Sequence record: OP197928
Reading direction: 5' to 3' (one strand)
DNA: 64,000 bases
From: Shigella phage A2
This document shows positions 48,584 through 56,868 of the stretch, piece after piece (the stretch's first letter is position 1; every line of letters starts with the position of its first letter). Made by a program: the position numbers and the translations under genes. Under the pieces are notes generated by a model. It did not search any database. It saw only the letters and a program-made list of their open reading frames with translations, and was not told where the DNA came from.

Positions 48584-49699
48584 ATGGAAAAATTTATGGC
48601 AGAGTTTGGACAAGGATATGTCCAAACGCCATTTTTATCGGAAAGTAATTCAGTAAGATATAAAATAAGTATAGCGGGTTCTTGCCCGCTTTCTACGGCA
48701 GGACCATACGTTAAATTTCAGGATAATCCTGTTGGAAGTCAAACATTTAGCGCAGGACTTCATTTAAGAGTTTTTGATCCTTCCACCGGAGCATTAGTTG
48801 ATAGTAAGTCATATGCCTTTTCGACTTCAAACGATACTACATCAGCTGCTTTTGTTAGTTTCATGAATTCTTTGGCGAATAACAGACTTGTTGCTATATT
48901 AACTAACGGAAAGGTTAATTTTCCTCCTGAAGTAGTATCTTGGTTAAGAACAGCAGGAACGTCTGCTTTTCCATCTGACTCTGTATTGTCAAGATTCGAC
49001 GTATCATATGCTGCTTTTTATACTTCTTCTAAAAGAGCTATTGCATTAGAGCATGTTAAACTGAGTAATAGAAAAAGCACAGATGATTATCAAACTATTT
49101 TAGATGTTGTATTTGACAGTTTAGAAGACGTCGGAGCTACCGGGTTTCCAAGAAGAACGTATGAAAGCGTTGAGCAATTTATGTCAGCGGTTGGTGGAAC
49201 TAATAACGAAATTGCAAGATTACCAACTTCAGCTGCTATAAGTAAACTATCTGACTACAATTTAATTCCTGGCGATGTTCTTTATCTTAAAGCACAGTTA
49301 TATGCTGATGCCGATTTACTTGCGCTTGGAACAACAAATATATCTATCCGTTTTTATAACGCATCTAATGGATATATTTCCTCGACACAAGCTGAGTTTA
49401 CTGGACAAGCTGGATCTTGGGAATTAAAAGAAGATTATGTGGTTGTTCCAGAAAACGCTGTCGGATTTACGATATATGCACAGAGAACTGCGCAAGCTGG
49501 TCAAGGTGGCATGAGAAATTTAAGCTTTTCTGAAGTGTCAAGAAATGGAGGTATTTCGAAACCTGCTGAATTTGGCGTCAATGGCATTCGTGTTAATTAT
49601 ATCTGTGAATCTGCTTCACCTCCGGATATAATGGTACTTCCTACGCAAGCATCGTCTAAAACTGGTAAAGTGTTTGGGCAAGAATTTAGAGAAGTTTAA
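48584..49699 (+). CDS. 35: Long tail fibre hinge protein gp35
   Basis: 371 aa; gene order. Confidence 0.88.
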   Translation: MEKFMAEFGQGYVQTPFLSESNSVRYKISIAGSCPLSTAGPYVKFQDNPVGSQTFSAGLHLRVFDPSTGALVDSKSYAFSTSNDTTSAAFVSFMNSLANNRLVAILTNGKVNFPPEVVSWLRTAGTSAFPSDSVLSRFDVSYAAFYTSSKRAIALEHVKLSNRKSTDDYQTILDVVFDSLEDVGATGFPRRTYESVEQFMSAVGGTNNEIARLPTSAAISKLSDYNLIPGDVLYLKAQLYADADLLALGTTNISIRFYNASNGYISSTQAEFTGQAGSWELKEDYVVVPENAVGFTIYAQRTAQAGQGGMRNLSFSEVSRNGGISKPAEFGVNGIRVNYICESASPPDIMVLPTQASSKTGKVFGQEFREV

Positions 49700-49730: not shown

Positions 49731-49738
49731 TATAAATA
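49731..49738 (+). promoter_or_regulatory. Late promoter (TATAAATA) for gene 36
   Basis: Exact TATAAATA 24 nt upstream of ATG 49762. Confidence 0.7.
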
Positions 49739-49761: not shown

Positions 49762-50427
49762 ATGGCTGATTTAAAAGTAGGTTCAACAACTGGAGGCTCT
49801 GTCATTTGGCATCAAGGAAATTTTCCATTGAATCCAGCCGGTGACGATGTACTCTATAAATCATTTAAAATATATTCAGAATACAATAAACCACAAGCTG
49901 TTGATAACGATTTCGTTTCTAAAGCTAATGGTGGTACTTATGCATCAAAGGTAACATTTAATGCTGGTGTTCAAGTACCATATGCTGTAAACAATACAAA
50001 CCCGTGCGGTATTTATCCAGGTAACGGTGATAATGCTACTTTTGCTGTAGCAAATATCGATATTGTTTCGTGGAATGGTATTGGTTTTAAATCATCACAG
50101 GGTTCAGCAGCCCGAACTGTTGTAATTAATGCACGTAATGGTGATATTAGTACAAAAGGCGTTGTGTCGGCAGCAGGTCAAGTAAGAAGTGATGCGGCTG
50201 CTCCTATAGCAGCGAATGACCTTACTAGAAAGGACTATGTTGATGGAGCAATAAATACTGTTACAGCAAATGCGAACTCTAGAGTGTTACGATCTGGTGA
50301 TACTATGACTGGAAACTTAACCGCACCAAACTTTTTCTCACAGAATCCTGCATCTCAACCTTCACATGTTCCACGATTTGACCAAATCGTAATTAAGGAT
50401 TCTGTTCAAGATTTCGGCTATTATTAA
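49762..50427 (+). CDS. 36: Long tail fibre distal connector gp36
   Basis: 221 aa; gene order. Confidence 0.88.
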   Translation: MADLKVGSTTGGSVIWHQGNFPLNPAGDDVLYKSFKIYSEYNKPQAVDNDFVSKANGGTYASKVTFNAGVQVPYAVNNTNPCGIYPGNGDNATFAVANIDIVSWNGIGFKSSQGSAARTVVINARNGDISTKGVVSAAGQVRSDAAAPIAANDLTRKDYVDGAINTVTANANSRVLRSGDTMTGNLTAPNFFSQNPASQPSHVPRFDQIVIKDSVQDFGYY

Positions 50428-50435
50428 GAGGACTT

Positions 50436-53400
50436 ATGGCTACTTTAAAACAAATACAATTTAAAAGAAGCAAAACTGCAGGTCAACGTCCTGCTGCTTC
50501 AGTATTAGCCGAAGGTGAATTGGCTATAAACTTAAAAGACCGTACTCTTTTTACTAAAGATGACTCGGGAAATATTATTGATTTAAGCATTACCGCTGGC
50601 GGTAATATTAGTGGAAATATCACTCAAACTGGCGATTATACACAGACTGGAAAATTTAATTTAATTGGTCCGCAAATTGTAGCAAGCGGTGGATATATTG
50701 AGTTTAATTATCGTACTACTGGAAGTGGGGCTTGGTCCGGTCAACACACTGCAAAAGCTCCAATTTTTGTAGATTTAAGCTCAGCTACTTCCACATCTGA
50801 ATATAATCCTATAATTAAACAGCGCTTTAAAGATGGAACTTTTTCATTAGGTACTTTAGTTTCTGAAGGTTCGTTGAAGATTCATTATATTGATGAAACT
50901 GGTCAATCTAAATATTGGACATTTGCGCGCTCAGGTAATTTTCAAGTTGATTCTGGTAATTTATTAGTATCTGGTGGGTATTTAGTCGCTCAGAGTAATA
51001 TTGAAACAAGAACAGGTTCTTTGATTGGTCCATCTGTTGTAACTAAAAATATTTCATTTGATACGAAAGCGTTTGGACAATACGATTCGCAGTCATTAGT
51101 TCAATATGTTTATCCTGGAACTGGTGAAACAAACGGAATTAATTACCTTCGTAAATTCCGTGCAAAATCTGGTGGTACGATTTATCATGAATTAGCTTCT
51201 GCACAAACCGGAAAAAGTGATGAACTGTCTTGGTGGACCGGTAATACAGCCGTTAATAAACAAATGGGCCTTCGCAATGATGGGTCTTTAGTGTTGCGAC
51301 GCTCACTCGCAATTGGTACAATTACAACAGATGAAAACATTAATAATTACGGCTCCACTGGAGCAATGGGTGAATGCTATATAGTCATTGGAGATGCCGC
51401 AACTGGTGTATCATATAAAAGATCTGGTGTATATGATTTAGTTGCTAATGGTCTTTCTATCGCGTCTATTACTCCTGATAGTTTCCGTAGTACTCGTAAA
51501 GCGTTATTTGGACGTTCAGAAGACCAAGGCGGAACCTGGACAATGCCTGGAACGAATGCTGCATTTTTATCAGTTCAAACACAGGCTGATGAAAACAGTG
51601 CTGGAGACGGTCAGACACATATTGGCTATAATTCAGGCGGAAAAATGAACCACTATTTCCGCGGCAAAGGCAAAACTAATATTAATACTCAAGAAGGCAT
51701 GGAAGTTAACCCGGGTATTCTTAAAATAGTAACCGGTGCAAATAATGTAATGTTTTATGCTGATGGCGGTATTACATCCACTAAGCAGCTTTCAATATAT
51801 AATGGTGTATATTTAGCAGCTAATAATTCTACTGCTGGGCTAACATTCGCTCCAACTACTACAATTGATGGCACTAAGCAAATTTTGTGGGAAGGTGGTA
51901 AGCGCGCTGGACAGAATAAAAGCTATGTAACTGTTAAAGCGTGGGGTAATTCATTTAACGCATCTGGCGATCGTAATCGTGAAACAGTTTTTGAAGTAGC
52001 TGACGGACAAGGTTATTATTTTTATTCCCAGCGTGTAGCCCCAAGCGGCTCAGAAACTACTGGTCCTGTTGTAACTCAGTTTGCTGGAGCTGTTAATGCT
52101 AGAGGAAGTATTATTACTGACGGAAGTTTTAAAGTTAATGGATTGAGCACTTTAGTCGGTAATGTTACCATGTCTAATGGTTTGTTTGTCCAAGGTGGTT
52201 CTTCTGTTACTGGACAAGTTAAAATCGGCGGAACTGCTGATGCATTAAGAATTTGGAATGCCGAATATGGTGCTATTTTCCGTCGCTCAGAAAGTAATCT
52301 TTATATTATCCCGACTCCTAAAGATGCTGGAGAATCTGGTGGTATAAGTAATCTTAGACCATTGATAATAGAACTGAACACTGGCACAGTTAAAATGTCG
52401 CATGATGTTCATTTAGGAGATTCTGGATCTGGTACAGGATTATTACAAGTAAGTAATAGTCTTAAAACTATTAAAATGATATGTCCAGTAACTATTAATG
52501 AACGCAATGCAGCGCTTACTCTAGATTCTCCTTCATCTTCTTCTGCTAATTATTTGCAGGGTTCTAAAGCTGGAACTAGATCGTGGTATGTTGGTCTTGG
52601 TGGTGCTGGAAATGATTTATCACTTTATAGCCAATCTTATGGGCATGGTCTTGTTATAAGTGATAATTTCGTGTCAATCACTAAACCCTTTAAAGTCGGA
52701 AATGCCCAACTAGGAACTGACGGTAATATTACCAACGGTTCAGGAAACTTTGCTAACTTAAATACCACGTTAAATCGTAAAGTTAATTCTGGATTTATTA
52801 CTTATGGAGCAACTGCTGGATGGTATAAGTTTGCAACAGTAACAATGCCACAATCCACTTCGACAGTCTTCTTTAAAATAGCCGGTGGTTCTGGATTTAA
52901 TAGCGGATTATTCACACAATGTAATATTGCTGAAATTGTTTTACGTACTAGCAATGAAAGACCTGCTGACTTAAATGCTGTATTATACACAAGAACAATT
53001 GGATCTGCATTTAAAGATATTGCAGTTAATAACGTCTCTGGAGATACATATGACATTTATGTTTCTGCCGGAACATATTGCAATCAATTAACTTGTGAAT
53101 GGACATGTACTGAAAACGCTACGGTTAGTGTTATTGGTATTAACTCATCTACACAATCGCCTGTAGATGCTCTTCCAGACACAGCAGTTAACGGTCAAGT
53201 TGCTAATGTTCTTAATAACTTGGTTGATCGCGGTAAAGTTAAACGTTACGAAGCTGATTCTGAAATAGCTATTAATAACCAAACCGGCATTCGTATTAGA
53301 AGCAACGGCGATAAAACTGGTTCTATTGCTACAATGCTACGAAATGATGGCGGTAGTTTTTATATTCTGTTTACAGATAAAAATGCCACCGATGGCGCAG

Positions 53401-54218
53401 CAACTGTTAACGGCGATTGGAATAGTAAGCGTCCTTTCGCAATTAACTTAACAACCGGTGAAGTGCTAATGAATAACGGTATAGCTGTTCGCAGCGCTGC
53501 TTTATTCTATAATAGCATAAACGTCAAAGATAATGGTTCTATTAACTTTGATAAATCAGGCGCTAACCCTAGAAATATGAGAATATTTCATGCTGGCGAT
53601 GCTTCTCGCGGTAACCGTATTGAAATTGCCGATGAAACTAACTATATTGCTTACTTTGAAAAAGCTCCAGGTGGAGCTAACCGCTTTGTAGTAAATAATG
53701 CTACTGTGGCTGGTGTTAATCAAATGAATTCATTTGGTATTAACATCAATAACGCACTTGGTGGAAACAGTATAGCATTTGGTGATAATGACACGGGTAT
53801 TAAGCAAAACGGCGATGGATTATTAGACATTTATGCGAATGGTGTGCAAACGTTCCGTTTCCAAAACGGTGATTTGTACTCATATAAAAATATAAATGCC
53901 CCAAACGTTTATATTCGTTCTGATATTCGCTTAAAATCTAATTTCAAACCTATCGAAAATGCACTTGATAAAGTTGAAAAACTCAATGGTGTCATTTATG
54001 ATAAAGCTGAATACATCGGTGGAGAGGCAATTGAAACTGAAGCGGGTATTGTGGCTCAAACGTTACAAGACGTTTTACCAGAAGCTGTCCGTGAAACAGA
54101 AGACAGCAAGGGTAATAAAATACTCACTGTTTCTTCTCAAGCCCAGATTGCTCTTCTGGTTGAAGCTGTGAAAACACTTTCTTCTCGTGTAAAAGAACTT
54201 GAATCTAAACTTATGTAA
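50436..54218 (+). CDS. 37: Long tail fibre distal subunit gp37 with C-terminal intramolecular-chaperone-like domain
   Basis: 1260 aa; module shared with gp34; C-terminal SDIRLKSNF...KELESKLM resembles auto-cleaving chaperone domains. Confidence 0.9.
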   Translation: MATLKQIQFKRSKTAGQRPAASVLAEGELAINLKDRTLFTKDDSGNIIDLSITAGGNISGNITQTGDYTQTGKFNLIGPQIVASGGYIEFNYRTTGSGAWSGQHTAKAPIFVDLSSATSTSEYNPIIKQRFKDGTFSLGTLVSEGSLKIHYIDETGQSKYWTFARSGNFQVDSGNLLVSGGYLVAQSNIETRTGSLIGPSVVTKNISFDTKAFGQYDSQSLVQYVYPGTGETNGINYLRKFRAKSGGTIYHELASAQTGKSDELSWWTGNTAVNKQMGLRNDGSLVLRRSLAIGTITTDENINNYGSTGAMGECYIVIGDAATGVSYKRSGVYDLVANGLSIASITPDSFRSTRKALFGRSEDQGGTWTMPGTNAAFLSVQTQADENSAGDGQTHIGYNSGGKMNHYFRGKGKTNINTQEGMEVNPGILKIVTGANNVMFYADGGITSTKQLSIYNGVYLAANNSTAGLTFAPTTTIDGTKQILWEGGKRAGQNKSYVTVKAWGNSFNASGDRNRETVFEVADGQGYYFYSQRVAPSGSETTGPVVTQFAGAVNARGSIITDGSFKVNGLSTLVGNVTMSNGLFVQGGSSVTGQVKIGGTADALRIWNAEYGAIFRRSESNLYIIPTPKDAGESGGISNLRPLIIELNTGTVKMSHDVHLGDSGSGTGLLQVSNSLKTIKMICPVTINERNAALTLDSPSSSSANYLQGSKAGTRSWYVGLGGAGNDLSLYSQSYGHGLVISDNFVSITKPFKVGNAQLGTDGNITNGSGNFANLNTTLNRKVNSGFITYGATAGWYKFATVTMPQSTSTVFFKIAGGSGFNSGLFTQCNIAEIVLRTSNERPADLNAVLYTRTIGSAFKDIAVNNVSGDTYDIYVSAGTYCNQLTCEWTCTENATVSVIGINSSTQSPVDALPDTAVNGQVANVLNNLVDRGKVKRYEADSEIAINNQTGIRIRSNGDKTGSIATMLRNDGGSFYILFTDKNATDGAATVNGDWNSKRPFAINLTTGEVLMNNGIAVRSAALFYNSINVKDNGSINFDKSGANPRNMRIFHAGDASRGNRIEIADETNYIAYFEKAPGGANRFVVNNATVAGVNQMNSFGININNALGGNSIAFGDNDTGIKQNGDGLLDIYANGVQTFRFQNGDLYSYKNINAPNVYIRSDIRLKSNFKPIENALDKVEKLNGVIYDKAEYIGGEAIETEAGIVAQTLQDVLPEAVRETEDSKGNKILTVSSQAQIALLVEAVKTLSSRVKELESKLM

Positions 54219-54248
54219 AAGAGGGCTTCGGCCCTCTAAGGATTTTTA

Positions 54249-55034
54249 ATGGCAATTGTAGGTGTTCCTGGCTGGATTGGTGAATCTGCCGTGAATGAAA
54301 CTGGACAACGTTGGATGGATGCTGCAATGAGAGCAGTCCGTGTTTCAGTTCCCGGTTGGATGAGCTCAATGGCCGGACAATCTAAAGAAGTATATTATAG
54401 CATTGGTGCTAGTAATTCTTATAATAAAGATACATTAATAAACTGGATAAAAGCACAAGGGTCCACGCCTGTTGTTATTACTATTACAGGAAATATTGTT
54501 TCTCAATCTACTGGTGTTCCATGCTTAGATTTTCCTAGCTCATTAACTAATGCATACGTGACACTTAATATCAATTCAGGCGTGCATGTTTGGGGCCGTG
54601 GTGGGAATGGCGGAAATAACTCTGCCGGTAGAGCAGGAGGAACTGCAATAAATAATGGAATTGGAACTAGATTGCGTATTAACAACAATGGTGTTATCGC
54701 AGGAGGCGGTGGCGGCGGTGGAGGCGGATATTATTCTCCTTTTTCACAAATGAAATTGACTTTTGGCGGTGGCGGCGGTCGTCCATTTGGTGCTGCTGGC
54801 GGGTCTGCTAATATGGAACAGGGCGCTACTGCTGGTACTATTTCTGCACCTGGTAAAGGGTCTGTCAATGGTATCTATAATGGCGGGAATGGCGGTGATG
54901 CTGGTGCCGCAGGTGGTAAATGTAATATTCGTGGGCAAGGATCAGAATATAACGGCGGCGCGGCTGGTAAAGCTGTTACTGGTAATGCTCCAACTTGGAC
55001 TAAGGTTGGTACAATATATGGTTCAAGAGTATAA
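54249..55034 (+). CDS. 38: T2-type tail fibre tip adhesin gp38 (glycine-rich motifs)
   Basis: 261 aa; conserved N-terminus MAIVGVPGWIGESAV; poly-Gly blocks (GGGGGGGGGY, GGGGGRP) between variable segments. Confidence 0.88.
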   Translation: MAIVGVPGWIGESAVNETGQRWMDAAMRAVRVSVPGWMSSMAGQSKEVYYSIGASNSYNKDTLINWIKAQGSTPVVITITGNIVSQSTGVPCLDFPSSLTNAYVTLNINSGVHVWGRGGNGGNNSAGRAGGTAINNGIGTRLRINNNGVIAGGGGGGGGGYYSPFSQMKLTFGGGGGRPFGAAGGSANMEQGATAGTISAPGKGSVNGIYNGGNGGDAGAAGGKCNIRGQGSEYNGGAAGKAVTGNAPTWTKVGTIYGSRV

Positions 55035-55066: not shown

Positions 55067-55723
55067 ATGGCAGCACCTAGAATATCATTTTCGCCCTCTG
55101 ATATTCTATTTGGTGTTCTAGATCGCTTGTTCAAAGATAACGCTACCGGGAAAGTTCTTGCTTCCCGGGTAGCTGTCGTAATTCTTTTATTTATGATGGC
55201 GATTGTTTGGTATAGGGGAGATAGTTTCTTTGAGTACTATAAGCAATCAAAGTATGAAACATACAGTGAAATTATTGAAAAGGAAAGAAATGCACGCTTT
55301 GAATCTGTCGCCCTGGAACAACTCCAGATAGTTCATATATCATCTGAGGCAGACTTTAGTGCGGTGTATTCTTTCCGCCCTAAAAACTTAAACTATTTTG
55401 TTGATATTATAGCATATGAAGGAAAATTACCTTCAACAATAAGTGAAAAATCACTTGGAGGATATCCTGTTGATAAAACTATGGATGAATATGCAGTTCA
55501 TTTAAATGGACGTCATTATTATTCCAACTCAAAATTTGCTTTTTTACCAACTAAAAAGCCTACTCCCGAAATAAACTACATGTACAGTTGTCCATATTTT
55601 AATTTGGATAATATCTATGCTGGAACGATAACCATGTACTGGTATAGAAATGATCATATAAGTAATGACCGCCTTGAATCAATATGTGCTCAGGCGGCCA
55701 GAATATTAGGAAGGGCTAAATAA
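55067..55723 (+). CDS. t: Holin T
   Basis: 218 aa; single N-terminal TM segment and large periplasmic domain; position after gene 38. Confidence 0.9.
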   Translation: MAAPRISFSPSDILFGVLDRLFKDNATGKVLASRVAVVILLFMMAIVWYRGDSFFEYYKQSKYETYSEIIEKERNARFESVALEQLQIVHISSEADFSAVYSFRPKNLNYFVDIIAYEGKLPSTISEKSLGGYPVDKTMDEYAVHLNGRHYYSNSKFAFLPTKKPTPEINYMYSCPYFNLDNIYAGTITMYWYRNDHISNDRLESICAQAARILGRAK

Positions 55724-55996: not shown

Positions 55997-56176
55997 AATA
56001 TTCCAACTCAATAAGATTAGTCATTTATTCAATAAGTTTATTATAACAAACCTATTCTTCTTGTAAACTACTTTGTACAACTTTTTCTGGATTTGTATAA
56101 CCTTGTCCCAAGAATTCCGCAACTGTCTGGGCTTCTCTAAGACGTTCTGACTCAACTACTTGCTCAAGATTATGAC

Positions 56177-56491
56177 TCATAGGAGTTCCTCTATACAACT
56201 ATCATTATCCTTATAGCTATCAATATAGTCCTGTAGGTCAAAGAACGCAATTTCATATTCTAGAGCTTTAAGAGCTCGTTCTTCGGTGTAGTCAGAACCG
56301 AAGACAATAATGATTTCACCAGGCCAGTTGCGGTCGAAGTCGACACTAAAAGGAATACGAGAACATACTTCGTCTGCCATATCTGCGATAACATTGCGAT
56401 ACACATTCTTGTTAACACGATAGAGCTCTGCGAGTTCTTCACAGCGAATAACCAGTTCAGTGGCAGGAGTTTCTTTTATTTTAGTAAGCAT
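56177..56491 (-). CDS. Acidic protein, possibly Arn-like DNA-mimic anti-restriction factor
   Basis: 104 aa, strongly acidic; position upstream of asiA where T4 has arn; identity not certain. Confidence 0.5.
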   Translation of the reverse strand: MLTKIKETPATELVIRCEELAELYRVNKNVYRNVIADMADEVCSRIPFSVDFDRNWPGEIIIVFGSDYTEERALKALEYEIAFFDLQDYIDSYKDNDSCIEELL

Positions 56492-56592
56492 AATCTTTAC
56501 CCTTATGTTTCTGTTTGCGTTTAGATTGAAGTTCTACTTTCTTCTTGTCTTTATGGACAGAAGCCTTATTAAAATCATGCTTTGCTACGAGA

Positions 56593-56868
56593 TTATTCAT
56601 CTTCCAGTTTCCTTAATTGATATTGCAAAGAGCTAATAATTTCTTCGTTCATTTTAATATACATATCACGTAAGAAAGGTTTTAGTCCGTGGCTCATAAT
56701 AGCTAATGTATCACCTTTACCCAAATTAACCAAATAAGGGTGATCTAAAGCATCCCAACCAGGTTGATTAGCATACATCCCGTAATCCTTTTCCATCATA
56801 TGGTTAAGACGTTTAATTTCTTGAATACGATTTTCAATAGCGTCTTTCTGGAGTTGTTTATTATTCAT
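56593..56868 (-). CDS. Hypothetical protein (arn-motA cluster)
   Basis: 91 aa ORF. Confidence 0.6.
   Translation of the reverse strand: MNNKQLQKDAIENRIQEIKRLNHMMEKDYGMYANQPGWDALDHPYLVNLGKGDTLAIMSHGLKPFLRDMYIKMNEEIISSLQYQLRKLEDE

Follow-up and report, generated by a model that had tools for sequence, protein, structure and literature searches.

Gene organization of the locus

Genes 37 and 38 of Shigella phage A2, a Tequatrovirus, raise the question of whether the product of gene 38 is a receptor-binding fibre tip or an assembly chaperone, and of which receptor the tail fibre recognises. In the 64-kb window (the whole stretch of DNA analysed) the open reading frames and their Pfam matches revealed the gene order g35-g36-g37-g38-t, with g35 and g36 upstream of the two genes and the t holin downstream. 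We put the probability at roughly 0.9 that gp37 and gp38 form a standard two-gene receptor-recognition module of the kind found in T2/T6-type T-even phages. The two genes are:

50436..54218, + strand: gene 37, distal long-tail-fibre subunit precursor, 1260 aa (ORF; Pfam gp37_trimer, Gp34_trimer, Peptidase_S74)
54249..55034, + strand: gene 38, predicted monomeric tail-fibre tip adhesin, 261 aa (ORF; Pfam GP38; PHROG 2056; PDB 6F45_D, 9V85)

The start codon of g38 follows the stop codon of g37 at a distance of 30 nt. The preliminary description had proposed a chaperone-like end of gp37 and a gp38 adhesin at this locus; both lie where it placed them, and the Pfam matches are far beyond chance. 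The same arrangement was present in all 33 related loci: a gp37 carrying the SDxRxK motif precedes a gene whose product has a gp38-type N-terminus, and the [VI]R/S^SDxRxK element is located 92-117 residues before the gp37 C-terminus (33/33). In sequence, gp37 is identical to UVD36933.1, a Shigella phage A2 protein deposited as 'hypothetical protein'. The phage itself was deposited as a Shigella phage. A literature search on 'Shigella phage A2' returned nothing, and the host receptor is unreported in the searched literature.

Two further elements were located between the genes:

54220..54237, + strand: hairpin AGAGGGC-UUCG-GCCCUCU, after the g37 stop and before the g38 ribosome-binding site (predicted fold -13.4 kcal/mol)
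54238-54242: g38 ribosome-binding site, AAGGA

The folding energy of the g37-g38 hairpin, taken alone, was statistically not unusual (z=-1.6). Hairpins of differing sequence occupy the same place in T2, T4, T6, Bas35, Bas43 and S16, and this conserved position with different sequences is better evidence for the hairpin than the folding energy. Scanning for T4 late promoters (TATAAATA) detected 11 sites in the window, with 9.3 expected; the site nearest to g38 is at 49731, upstream of g36. Between 49738 and g38 no TATAAATA site occurred, so the scan does not point to a promoter of g38's own.

Family assignment of gp38

Pfam profiles matched gp38 over residues 1-42 (Gp38_N, PF21721; E=8.2e-18, 64.6 bits) and 47-261 (GP38, PF05268; E=4.1e-73, 246 bits), the cut-off being 25 bits for either family. 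The protein also matched PHROG 2056, annotated as 'tail fiber protein; host specificity' (E=7e-106). Residues 8-259 could be aligned with the crystallised S16 gp38 (6F45_D, E=4e-49) and residues 39-261 with the receptor-binding domain of PP01 gp38 (9V85, E=2e-33). From these gap-poor alignments we infer that gp38 adopts the polyglycine-II sandwich fold.

54249..54374, + strand: gp38 N-terminal attachment domain, residues 1-42, T2 subtype (Pfam Gp38_N)

The N-terminal region contains three tryptophans (W9, W22 and W37) that do not vary in alignment A1, S16 included. Attachment to the gp37 tip through three Trp residues was described from the S16 structure (PMC6851490). Glycine makes up 22.5% of gp38 and 34.6% of residues 110-245, with runs of nine (152-160) and five (173-177) and eight GG pairs; the local rise of GC content to 0.48, from about 0.36 in the flanks, is due to this glycine-rich composition. 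Alignment of 20 distinct full-length adhesins identified conserved blocks at residues 116-122, 130-131, 152-160, 173-181, 212-216 and 236-240. The features first noticed from the sequence alone, namely a conserved N-terminus and glycine blocks between variable segments, were all seen in this alignment.

We then weighed whether gp38 could be a T4-like assembly chaperone acting outside the virion, with gp37 itself binding the receptor. GenBank records of teqhal, teqsoen and T6 label a near-identical gene 'distal long tail fiber assembly catalyst', and A2 gene 38 shares with T4 gene 38 its name and its genomic position. The two gp38 sequences, however, are unrelated (BLASTP E=19), and T4 gp38, which is no component of the virion, does not belong to any Pfam family, whereas A2 gp38 can be aligned from end to end with crystallised adhesins. 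T4 gp37, which itself carries the receptor-binding tip, has Collar and Phage_fiber domains and lacks Peptidase_S74; comparison of the C-terminal 260 aa of A2 gp37 with T4 gp37 did not reveal significant similarity (E=0.2). The RefSeq note of T4 also states that the 'gp38' of the T2 subfamily is unrelated to T4 gp38 and is an adhesin. The T4-type reading, dropped on this direct comparison with T4 gp38 and gp37, is scarcely credible, and assignment of gp38 to the T2/T6-type tip adhesins, as originally proposed, is borne out by the alignments with 6F45_D and 9V85. The role of gp38 as virion fibre tip and receptor binder was shown in T2/K3/Ox2, S16 and PP01 (PMC3157838, PMC6851490, PMC12892980), and by homology gp38 is predicted to be present in the A2 virion.

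The C-terminal chaperone and the tip of gp37

Three elements were distinguished at the distal end of gp37:

53745..53918, + strand: distal tip, residues 1104-1161, ending NVYIR; predicted gp38 docking platform (aligns with 6F45_A)
53916..53921, + strand: predicted autocleavage site R1161/S1162, NVYIR^SDIRLK (homology)
53919..54215, + strand: C-terminal intramolecular chaperone, S1162-M1260, 99 aa, with S1162/K1167 (Pfam PF13884)

Peptidase_S74 (PF13884) matched residues 1162-1219 with 56.5 bits (cut-off 22 bits; E=3.5e-15), and all 58 positions of the profile were covered. The chaperone thus comprises the last 99 of the 1260 residues of a protein that also carries the gp37_trimer and Gp34_trimer domains. 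A profile of the gp37 C-terminus reached 6F45_A (S16 gp37), 8JOV, MYRF (7DC3, E=3e-8) and GA-1 (3GUD). The SDxRxK motif is invariant in the 33 related gp37 proteins (33/33), and its S, D, R and K are also invariant in alignment A2. In the phage A2 protein the motif S1162-D-I-R-L-K1167 aligns with the MYRF motif and with SDERHK at residue 1 of 3GUD_A, the GA-1 chaperone chain, which starts at the Ser aligned to S1162. The Ser and Lys of SDxxxK have a catalytic role in endosialidase-type chaperones. Endosialidase-type chaperones (K1F endoNF, T5 pb1, GA-1 gp12, MYRF) resemble the gp37 domain in that they belong to Peptidase_S74, have SDxxxK at the domain start and sit at the C-terminus of a trimeric fibre. 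Release of the chaperone would here also uncover the docking site of a separate adhesin, which is not known to happen in tailspikes such as endoNF.

The cleavage site of S16 gp37 has been published and an equivalent R^S site was proposed for T2-like gp37; the S16 site (DLNVS^SDRRIKK) and that of the fPS phage (DVYIR^SDGRLKI) align with NVYIR^SDIRLK of A2 (PMC7917993). The C-termini of T2 and T6 gp37 were reported to be cleaved, after which the fibre is capped by gp38 (PMC3157838). By homology, A2 gp37 would be cut between R1161 and S1162, freeing 99 residues. Peptidase_S74, the invariant SDxRxK and a chaperone region with a single difference from the reportedly cleaved T2 protein all support the suggestion of the preliminary description that gp37 ends in an intramolecular chaperone which cleaves itself off. 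The peptide that it quoted, SDIRLKSNF...KELESKLM, is present with S1162 (53919) as its first residue and is 99 rather than 100 residues long; the position 53916, at which the coordinates of that description begin, is the codon of R1161, one codon earlier.

The gp37 distal tip aligns with the S16 gp37 chain 6F45_A from residue 19 of the latter, and its putative role in docking gp38 is based on the S16 structure (PMC6851490, PMC7917993). The architecture predicted for A2 is that of the S16 gp37(3)-gp38 complex (6F45): the trimeric gp37 tip left by autocleavage of the chaperone carries a gp38 monomer, in which an attachment domain containing three Trp is combined with a beta-helix and a five-loop polyglycine-II sandwich. 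S16 differs from A2 in sequence (about 43-50% identity), in its loops, in its receptor (Salmonella OmpC) and in having an S^S instead of an R^S site. The gp38 N-terminus co-varied with gp37 (Spearman rho 0.58 for the tip and 0.63 for the chaperone); because shared phylogeny confounds this co-variation, it is just compatible with the published lock-and-key idea.

Variable loops and the predicted receptor

That the gp38 loops set the host range, as the preliminary description assumed, is the accepted model, based on chimeras and mutants of related phages (PMC3157838, PMC12892980, PMC12032242). The 20 aligned adhesins displayed five variable segments between the conserved glycine blocks, and these five entropy peaks, at residues 123-127, 161-171, 185-193, 204-211 and 223-235, coincide with the structural loops A-E of PP01:

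54615..54635, + strand: loop A region, residues 123-129, NNSAGRA (entropy peak; PP01 loop-A W119-I124 plus 3 residues)
54729..54764, + strand: loop B, residues 161-172, YYSPFSQMKLTF (entropy peak; PP01 loop-B Q161-V170)
54801..54827, + strand: loop C, residues 185-193 (entropy peak; PP01 loop-C N184-W189)
54858..54881, + strand: loop D, residues 204-211, GSVNGIYN (entropy peak; PP01 loop-D N204-Y209)
54915..54953, + strand: loop E, residues 223-235, GKCNIRGQGSEYN (entropy peak; PP01 loop-E N225-S231)

PP01 gp38 (9V85) belongs to the same fold family and has its loops at the alignment positions of the A2 variable segments, but its receptor is OmpC of O157, its loops are unrelated in sequence to those of A2 and loop A has two residues more.

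The module had been called T2-type. This label fits the gp37 tip and the gp38 N-terminus: identity to T2 is 92.7% over gp37 residues 1096-1260, where the 99 residues of the chaperone region contain a single difference, and 98% over gp38 residues 1-46. The intercistronic hairpins of A2 and T2 are identical. The label does not fit the receptor loops, which are T6-type and point to Tsx. Identity to T6 was 10/12 in loop B, 6/9 in loop C, 8/8 in loop D and 11/13 in loop E, whereas the corresponding values for T2 were 0/12, 2/9, 2/8 and 1/13. Over all loop residues A2 matched Bas39 at 48/49 (98%), Bas35 at 40/49 (82%), T6 at 39/49 (80%) and T2 at 8/49 (16%) positions. The similarity to T6 extends over gp38 residues 115-261 (79% identity), but T6 has an N-terminal attachment domain belonging to another subtype (46% identity over gp38 residues 1-114, 65% over 1-46), a different and shorter gp37 tip, and a longer chaperone (113 aa). 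At the level of sequence, the A2 module is a mosaic, with a T2-type gp37 tip and gp38 N-terminus and T6-type loops.

A strictly T2-type module would recognise FadL/OmpF, the receptors of T2 (PMC3157838), rather than Tsx. The high identity to T2 in the segments listed above speaks for it, but the T2-like parts (gp37 tip and chaperone, gp38 residues 1-46) serve fibre assembly and attachment, not receptor binding, and the five loops resemble those of T6 and Bas39, not those of T2. Dropped on the loop-by-loop comparison, recognition of FadL/OmpF appears very unlikely.

The closest known system is Bas39 (Escherichia phage FriedrichMiescher), which has the same gene order, a gp38 identical in 260/261 residues and a gp37 with 97.9% identity (26 substitutions, of which three, N1118S, G1136S and T1139V, lie in the tip). 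Tsx dependence was established experimentally for Bas39, Bas43 and Bas35 (BASEL supplementary table and text), and Tsx is the receptor of T6 (PMC3157838). Alike gp38 sequences predict the same receptor (PMC12032242). A2 gp38 shares its loop set with the Tsx-dependent adhesins of Bas39, Bas35 and T6. Since the loops are T6-type and the protein is one residue off the Tsx-dependent Bas39 adhesin, the primary receptor of A2 is most probably Tsx and not the FadL/OmpF of T2. Loop sequence and receptor do not correspond one-to-one, because Bas43 is Tsx-dependent with loops only 37% identical to those of A2 gp38.

The G128R substitution

The one residue distinguishing A2 gp38 from that of Bas39 is R128 (codon AGA, 54630-54632), beside loop A; Bas39 has G128. 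G128R is the only peculiarity of the A2 module. One could suppose that this substitution shifted or broadened the specificity, for instance towards LPS, a different porin or some surface structure of Shigella, and that Tsx would thereby have lost its place as sole or primary receptor. In the 90% cluster, each of the 12 other full-length sequences read has G at this position, and none has R128; the residue is located three positions past the one aligned with the end of PP01 loop-A, and in the PST, SV76 and Ox2-type adhesins a few point changes in variable segments altered receptor use (PMC3157838, PMC12892980). On the other side, column 128 is naturally variable (G/S/N) among other functional adhesins, in PP01 it is loops E, D and B, not A, that chiefly determine specificity, and in a single deposited genome a selected change, a neutral polymorphism and a sequencing error at 128 look alike. 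We therefore consider a change of specificity through R128 unlikely, and it is similarly doubtful that G128R is a host-range mutation fitting a Tsx-type adhesin to Shigella or adding a second receptor. If it were, A2 and Bas39 would offer two natural adhesins, one residue apart, with which to work out what loop A contributes.

Proposed mechanism

With Tsx as the most probable receptor, the module may work as follows. In the 1260-aa gp37 precursor the last 99 residues (Peptidase_S74) would trimerise and nucleate folding of the fibre from its C-terminal end. The chaperone would then cut itself off between R1161 and S1162, using Ser1162 and Lys1167, and dissociate, exposing a flat trimeric tip that ends with NVYIR. 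A single gp38 is predicted to dock on this tip by its N-terminal attachment domain, with W9, W22 and W37, while the remainder of the protein would form a beta-helix and a polyglycine-II 'sandwich' made of the glycine blocks. Loops A-E would project from the distal face of gp38 and bind a beta-barrel protein of the outer membrane, most probably Tsx, by its extracellular loops.

Significance

The A2 module represents textbook, well-studied T-even biology: architecture, processing step, structure and receptor have been published for an essentially identical protein. What is gained is a corrected annotation, as gp37 is recorded as 'hypothetical protein' and some gp38 homologues as 'assembly catalyst', and a specific receptor prediction, Tsx, in place of the T2 receptors that the label 'T2-type' might suggest. 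Modules of this kind matter for the prediction and engineering of phage host range.

The long-tail-fibre operon

The interval 53916-55034 begins at the codon of gp37 residue R1161 and ends with the g38 stop codon. It falls within a + strand operon for the long tail fibre that is canonical for T-even phages.

Genes at the locus
48584-49699, + strand, g35 (ORF, Pfam)
49762-50427, + strand, g36 (ORF, Pfam)
50436-54218, + strand, g37 (1260 aa)
54249-55034, + strand, g38 (261 aa)
55067-55723, + strand, holin gene t (ORF, Pfam)

At 98.8% DNA identity, the interval matches several Tequatrovirus genomes, among them teqhal, teqsoen, FriedrichMiescher and the slur phages. Both proteins have exact sequence matches in Shigella phage A2: gp38 is UVD36934.1, deposited as 'receptor recognizing protein', and gp37 is UVD36933.1, deposited as 'hypothetical protein'. 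The latter label, and 'assembly catalyst' for the adhesin gene in the records of several relatives, are annotation errors worth correcting.

In the hinge protein gp35 (48584-49699), residues 58-127 match Pfam ILEI (Interleukin-like EMT inducer / FAM3-type) above the curated cut-off (E=2e-8). Between the g37 stop codon and the g38 ribosome-binding site lies a C(UUCG)G-type hairpin (54220-54237, AGAGGGC-TTCG-GCCCTCT). A hairpin also occupies this position in T2, T4, T6, Bas35, Bas43 and S16, but its stem and loop differ in sequence, which points to a conserved intercistronic RNA element with a probable role in mRNA stability or processing.

Downstream, T2, T4, T6 and Bas39 carry arn (anti-restriction nuclease) and asiA.1 after asiA, whereas tblastn detected no homologue of either gene in the whole window. 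The corresponding region (56012-56600, - strand) contains a 104-aa ORF (56177-56491, phrog_8202) and a fragment similar to the C-terminal end of T6 'RB32ORF249c' (56484-56597).

The gp38 adhesin

The preliminary description had taken gp38 for a T2/T6-type adhesin rather than a T4-type assembly chaperone, and its full-length structural matches bear this out. Residues 8-259 align with the crystal structure of the Salmonella phage S16 adhesin (6F45_D, E=4e-49) and residues 39-261 with the receptor-binding domain of PP01 gp38 (9V85, E=2e-33), whereas the T4 gp38 chaperone, the negative control, showed no similarity (E=19). The protein also matches Pfam GP38 (E=4.1e-73), Gp38_N (E=8.2e-18) and PHROG 2056 ('tail fiber protein; host specificity', E=7e-106). 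S16 gp38 is anchored in the gp37 tip by three tryptophans (PMC6851490), which correspond to W9, W22 and W37 of gp38, invariant in our alignment. Glycine makes up 22.5% of the protein and 34.6% of residues 110-245, with one G9 and one G5 run; because of this composition GC rises locally to 0.48.

Alignment of 20 distinct full-length adhesins, obtained from 26 further IMG/VR loci and six reference phages, displayed the conserved N-terminus and the glycine blocks with variable segments between them that had been noted earlier. The conserved blocks occupy residues 116-122, 130-131, 152-160, 173-181, 212-216 and 236-240. In the register of the 9V85 alignment, the five entropy peaks (123-127, 161-171, 185-193, 204-211 and 223-235) coincide with receptor-recognition loops A-E of the PP01 crystal structure (W119-I124, Q161-V170, N184-W189, N204-Y209 and N225-S231; PMC12892980).

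A single residue, G128R (codon AGA, 54630-54632), distinguishes gp38 from its Bas39 counterpart. Among the full-length sequences read from the 90% cluster, R128 is unique to the window: the other 12, Bas39 included, all have G128. A change of host range, neutral polymorphism and error are all possible explanations of the substitution. It lies three positions past the residue aligned with the end of PP01 loop A, and may be a host-range substitution in Shigella phage A2; the column is variable among adhesins (G/S/N), and a functional effect appears improbable.

The gp37 chaperone and its predicted cleavage site

Residues 1162-1219 of gp37 match Pfam Peptidase_S74 ('chaperone of endosialidase', E=3.5e-15), a domain lacking in T4 gp37, which has Collar and Phage_fiber domains instead. 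The Ser and Lys of the chaperone motif form a catalytic pair in endosialidases, an assignment that reportedly goes back to Schulz and co-workers in 2010. The 33 gp37 sequences examined all carry S-D-x-R-x-K without variation, placed 92-117 residues before the C-terminus, and in each of the 33 loci the next gene encodes a gp38-type N-terminus. The features of gp38 and of the gp37 chaperone are beyond chance. A profile of gp37 C-termini matched four solved structures.

Structures matched by the gp37 C-terminus profile
S16 gp37, 6F45_A, E=5e-47
MYRF autoprocessing domain, 7DC3, E=3e-8
Tail-fibre protein, 8JOV, E=2e-8
GA-1 neck-appendage chaperone, released form, 3GUD, E=0.017

Residue 1 of 3GUD is a serine aligned with the motif Ser of gp37. 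The published cleavage site of S16 gp37 is DLNVS^SDRRIKK, and DVYIR^SDGRLKI was proposed as its equivalent in T2-like fibres (PMC7917993); the predicted counterpart in the window is NVYIR(1161)^S(1162)DIRLK. In T2 and T6 the C-terminus of gp37 is reportedly cleaved, after which gp38 caps the fibre (PMC3157838). The domain and the motif uphold the proposal of an auto-cleaving chaperone-like C-terminus, with cleavage now predicted at R1161|S1162; the peptide SDIRLKSNF...KELESKLM, which starts at S1162 (53919), has 99 residues, not 100.

In many larger T4-like phages (IMG/VR loci L018-L032) the gene that starts near 1501, after a gp37 bearing the intramolecular chaperone, encodes a short protein of 155-174 aa, which may be a different tip module using the same docking system.

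T2/T6 mosaicism and the predicted receptor

Everything in the gp37-gp38 module is already known; judged by sequence, the module is a chimera that combines known subtypes. Its gp37 tip is of T2 type: residues 1096-1260 are 92.7% identical to T2, with a single difference in the chaperone region, whereas T6-type fibres lack the GDxDTGIKQNGDGLLD... segment of the T2-type tip and have a longer chaperone. Over gp38 residues 1-46 identity is 98% with T2 and 65% with T6; over residues 115-261, in contrast, it is 79% with T6 and 55% with T2. The T2-type N-terminus on a T2-type tip agrees with a published rule (PMC3157838), by which one C-terminal subtype of gp37 goes with each N-terminal subtype of gp38. 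The term 'T2-type' thus holds for the attachment scaffold (gp37 tip, gp38 N-terminus), but not for the receptor loops, which are T6/Tsx-type. Overall, the original observation was confirmed and its interpretation supported, with three small corrections: the length of the domain predicted to be released (99 aa), the predicted cleavage position and the type of the receptor loops.

Loop residues identical to the window
Bas39 (FriedrichMiescher), 48/49
Bas35 (WilhelmHis), 40/49
T6, 39/49
Bas43 (TadeuszReichstein), 18/49
T2, 8/49

The sequences directly show the domain identities, the motif, where the loops lie and a near-identity with proteins already characterised. By analogy with homologues, the chaperone would trimerise and nucleate gp37 folding, then cleave itself off at R1161|S1162; the freed tip would take up one gp38 through the three tryptophans, and the polyglycine-II sandwich would present loops A-E on its distal face, where they would bind the extracellular loops of Tsx.

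Tsx is the primary receptor of Bas39, Bas43 and Bas35, as determined in the BASEL collection, and the receptor of T6 (PMC3157838). Lutz et al. 2025 (PMC12032242) showed that, leaving the N-terminus aside, phages with similar gp38 can be predicted to use the same receptor. Since the loops resemble those of Bas39, Bas35 and T6, the best prediction for the receptor of this gp38 is Tsx, rather than the FadL/OmpF of T2.
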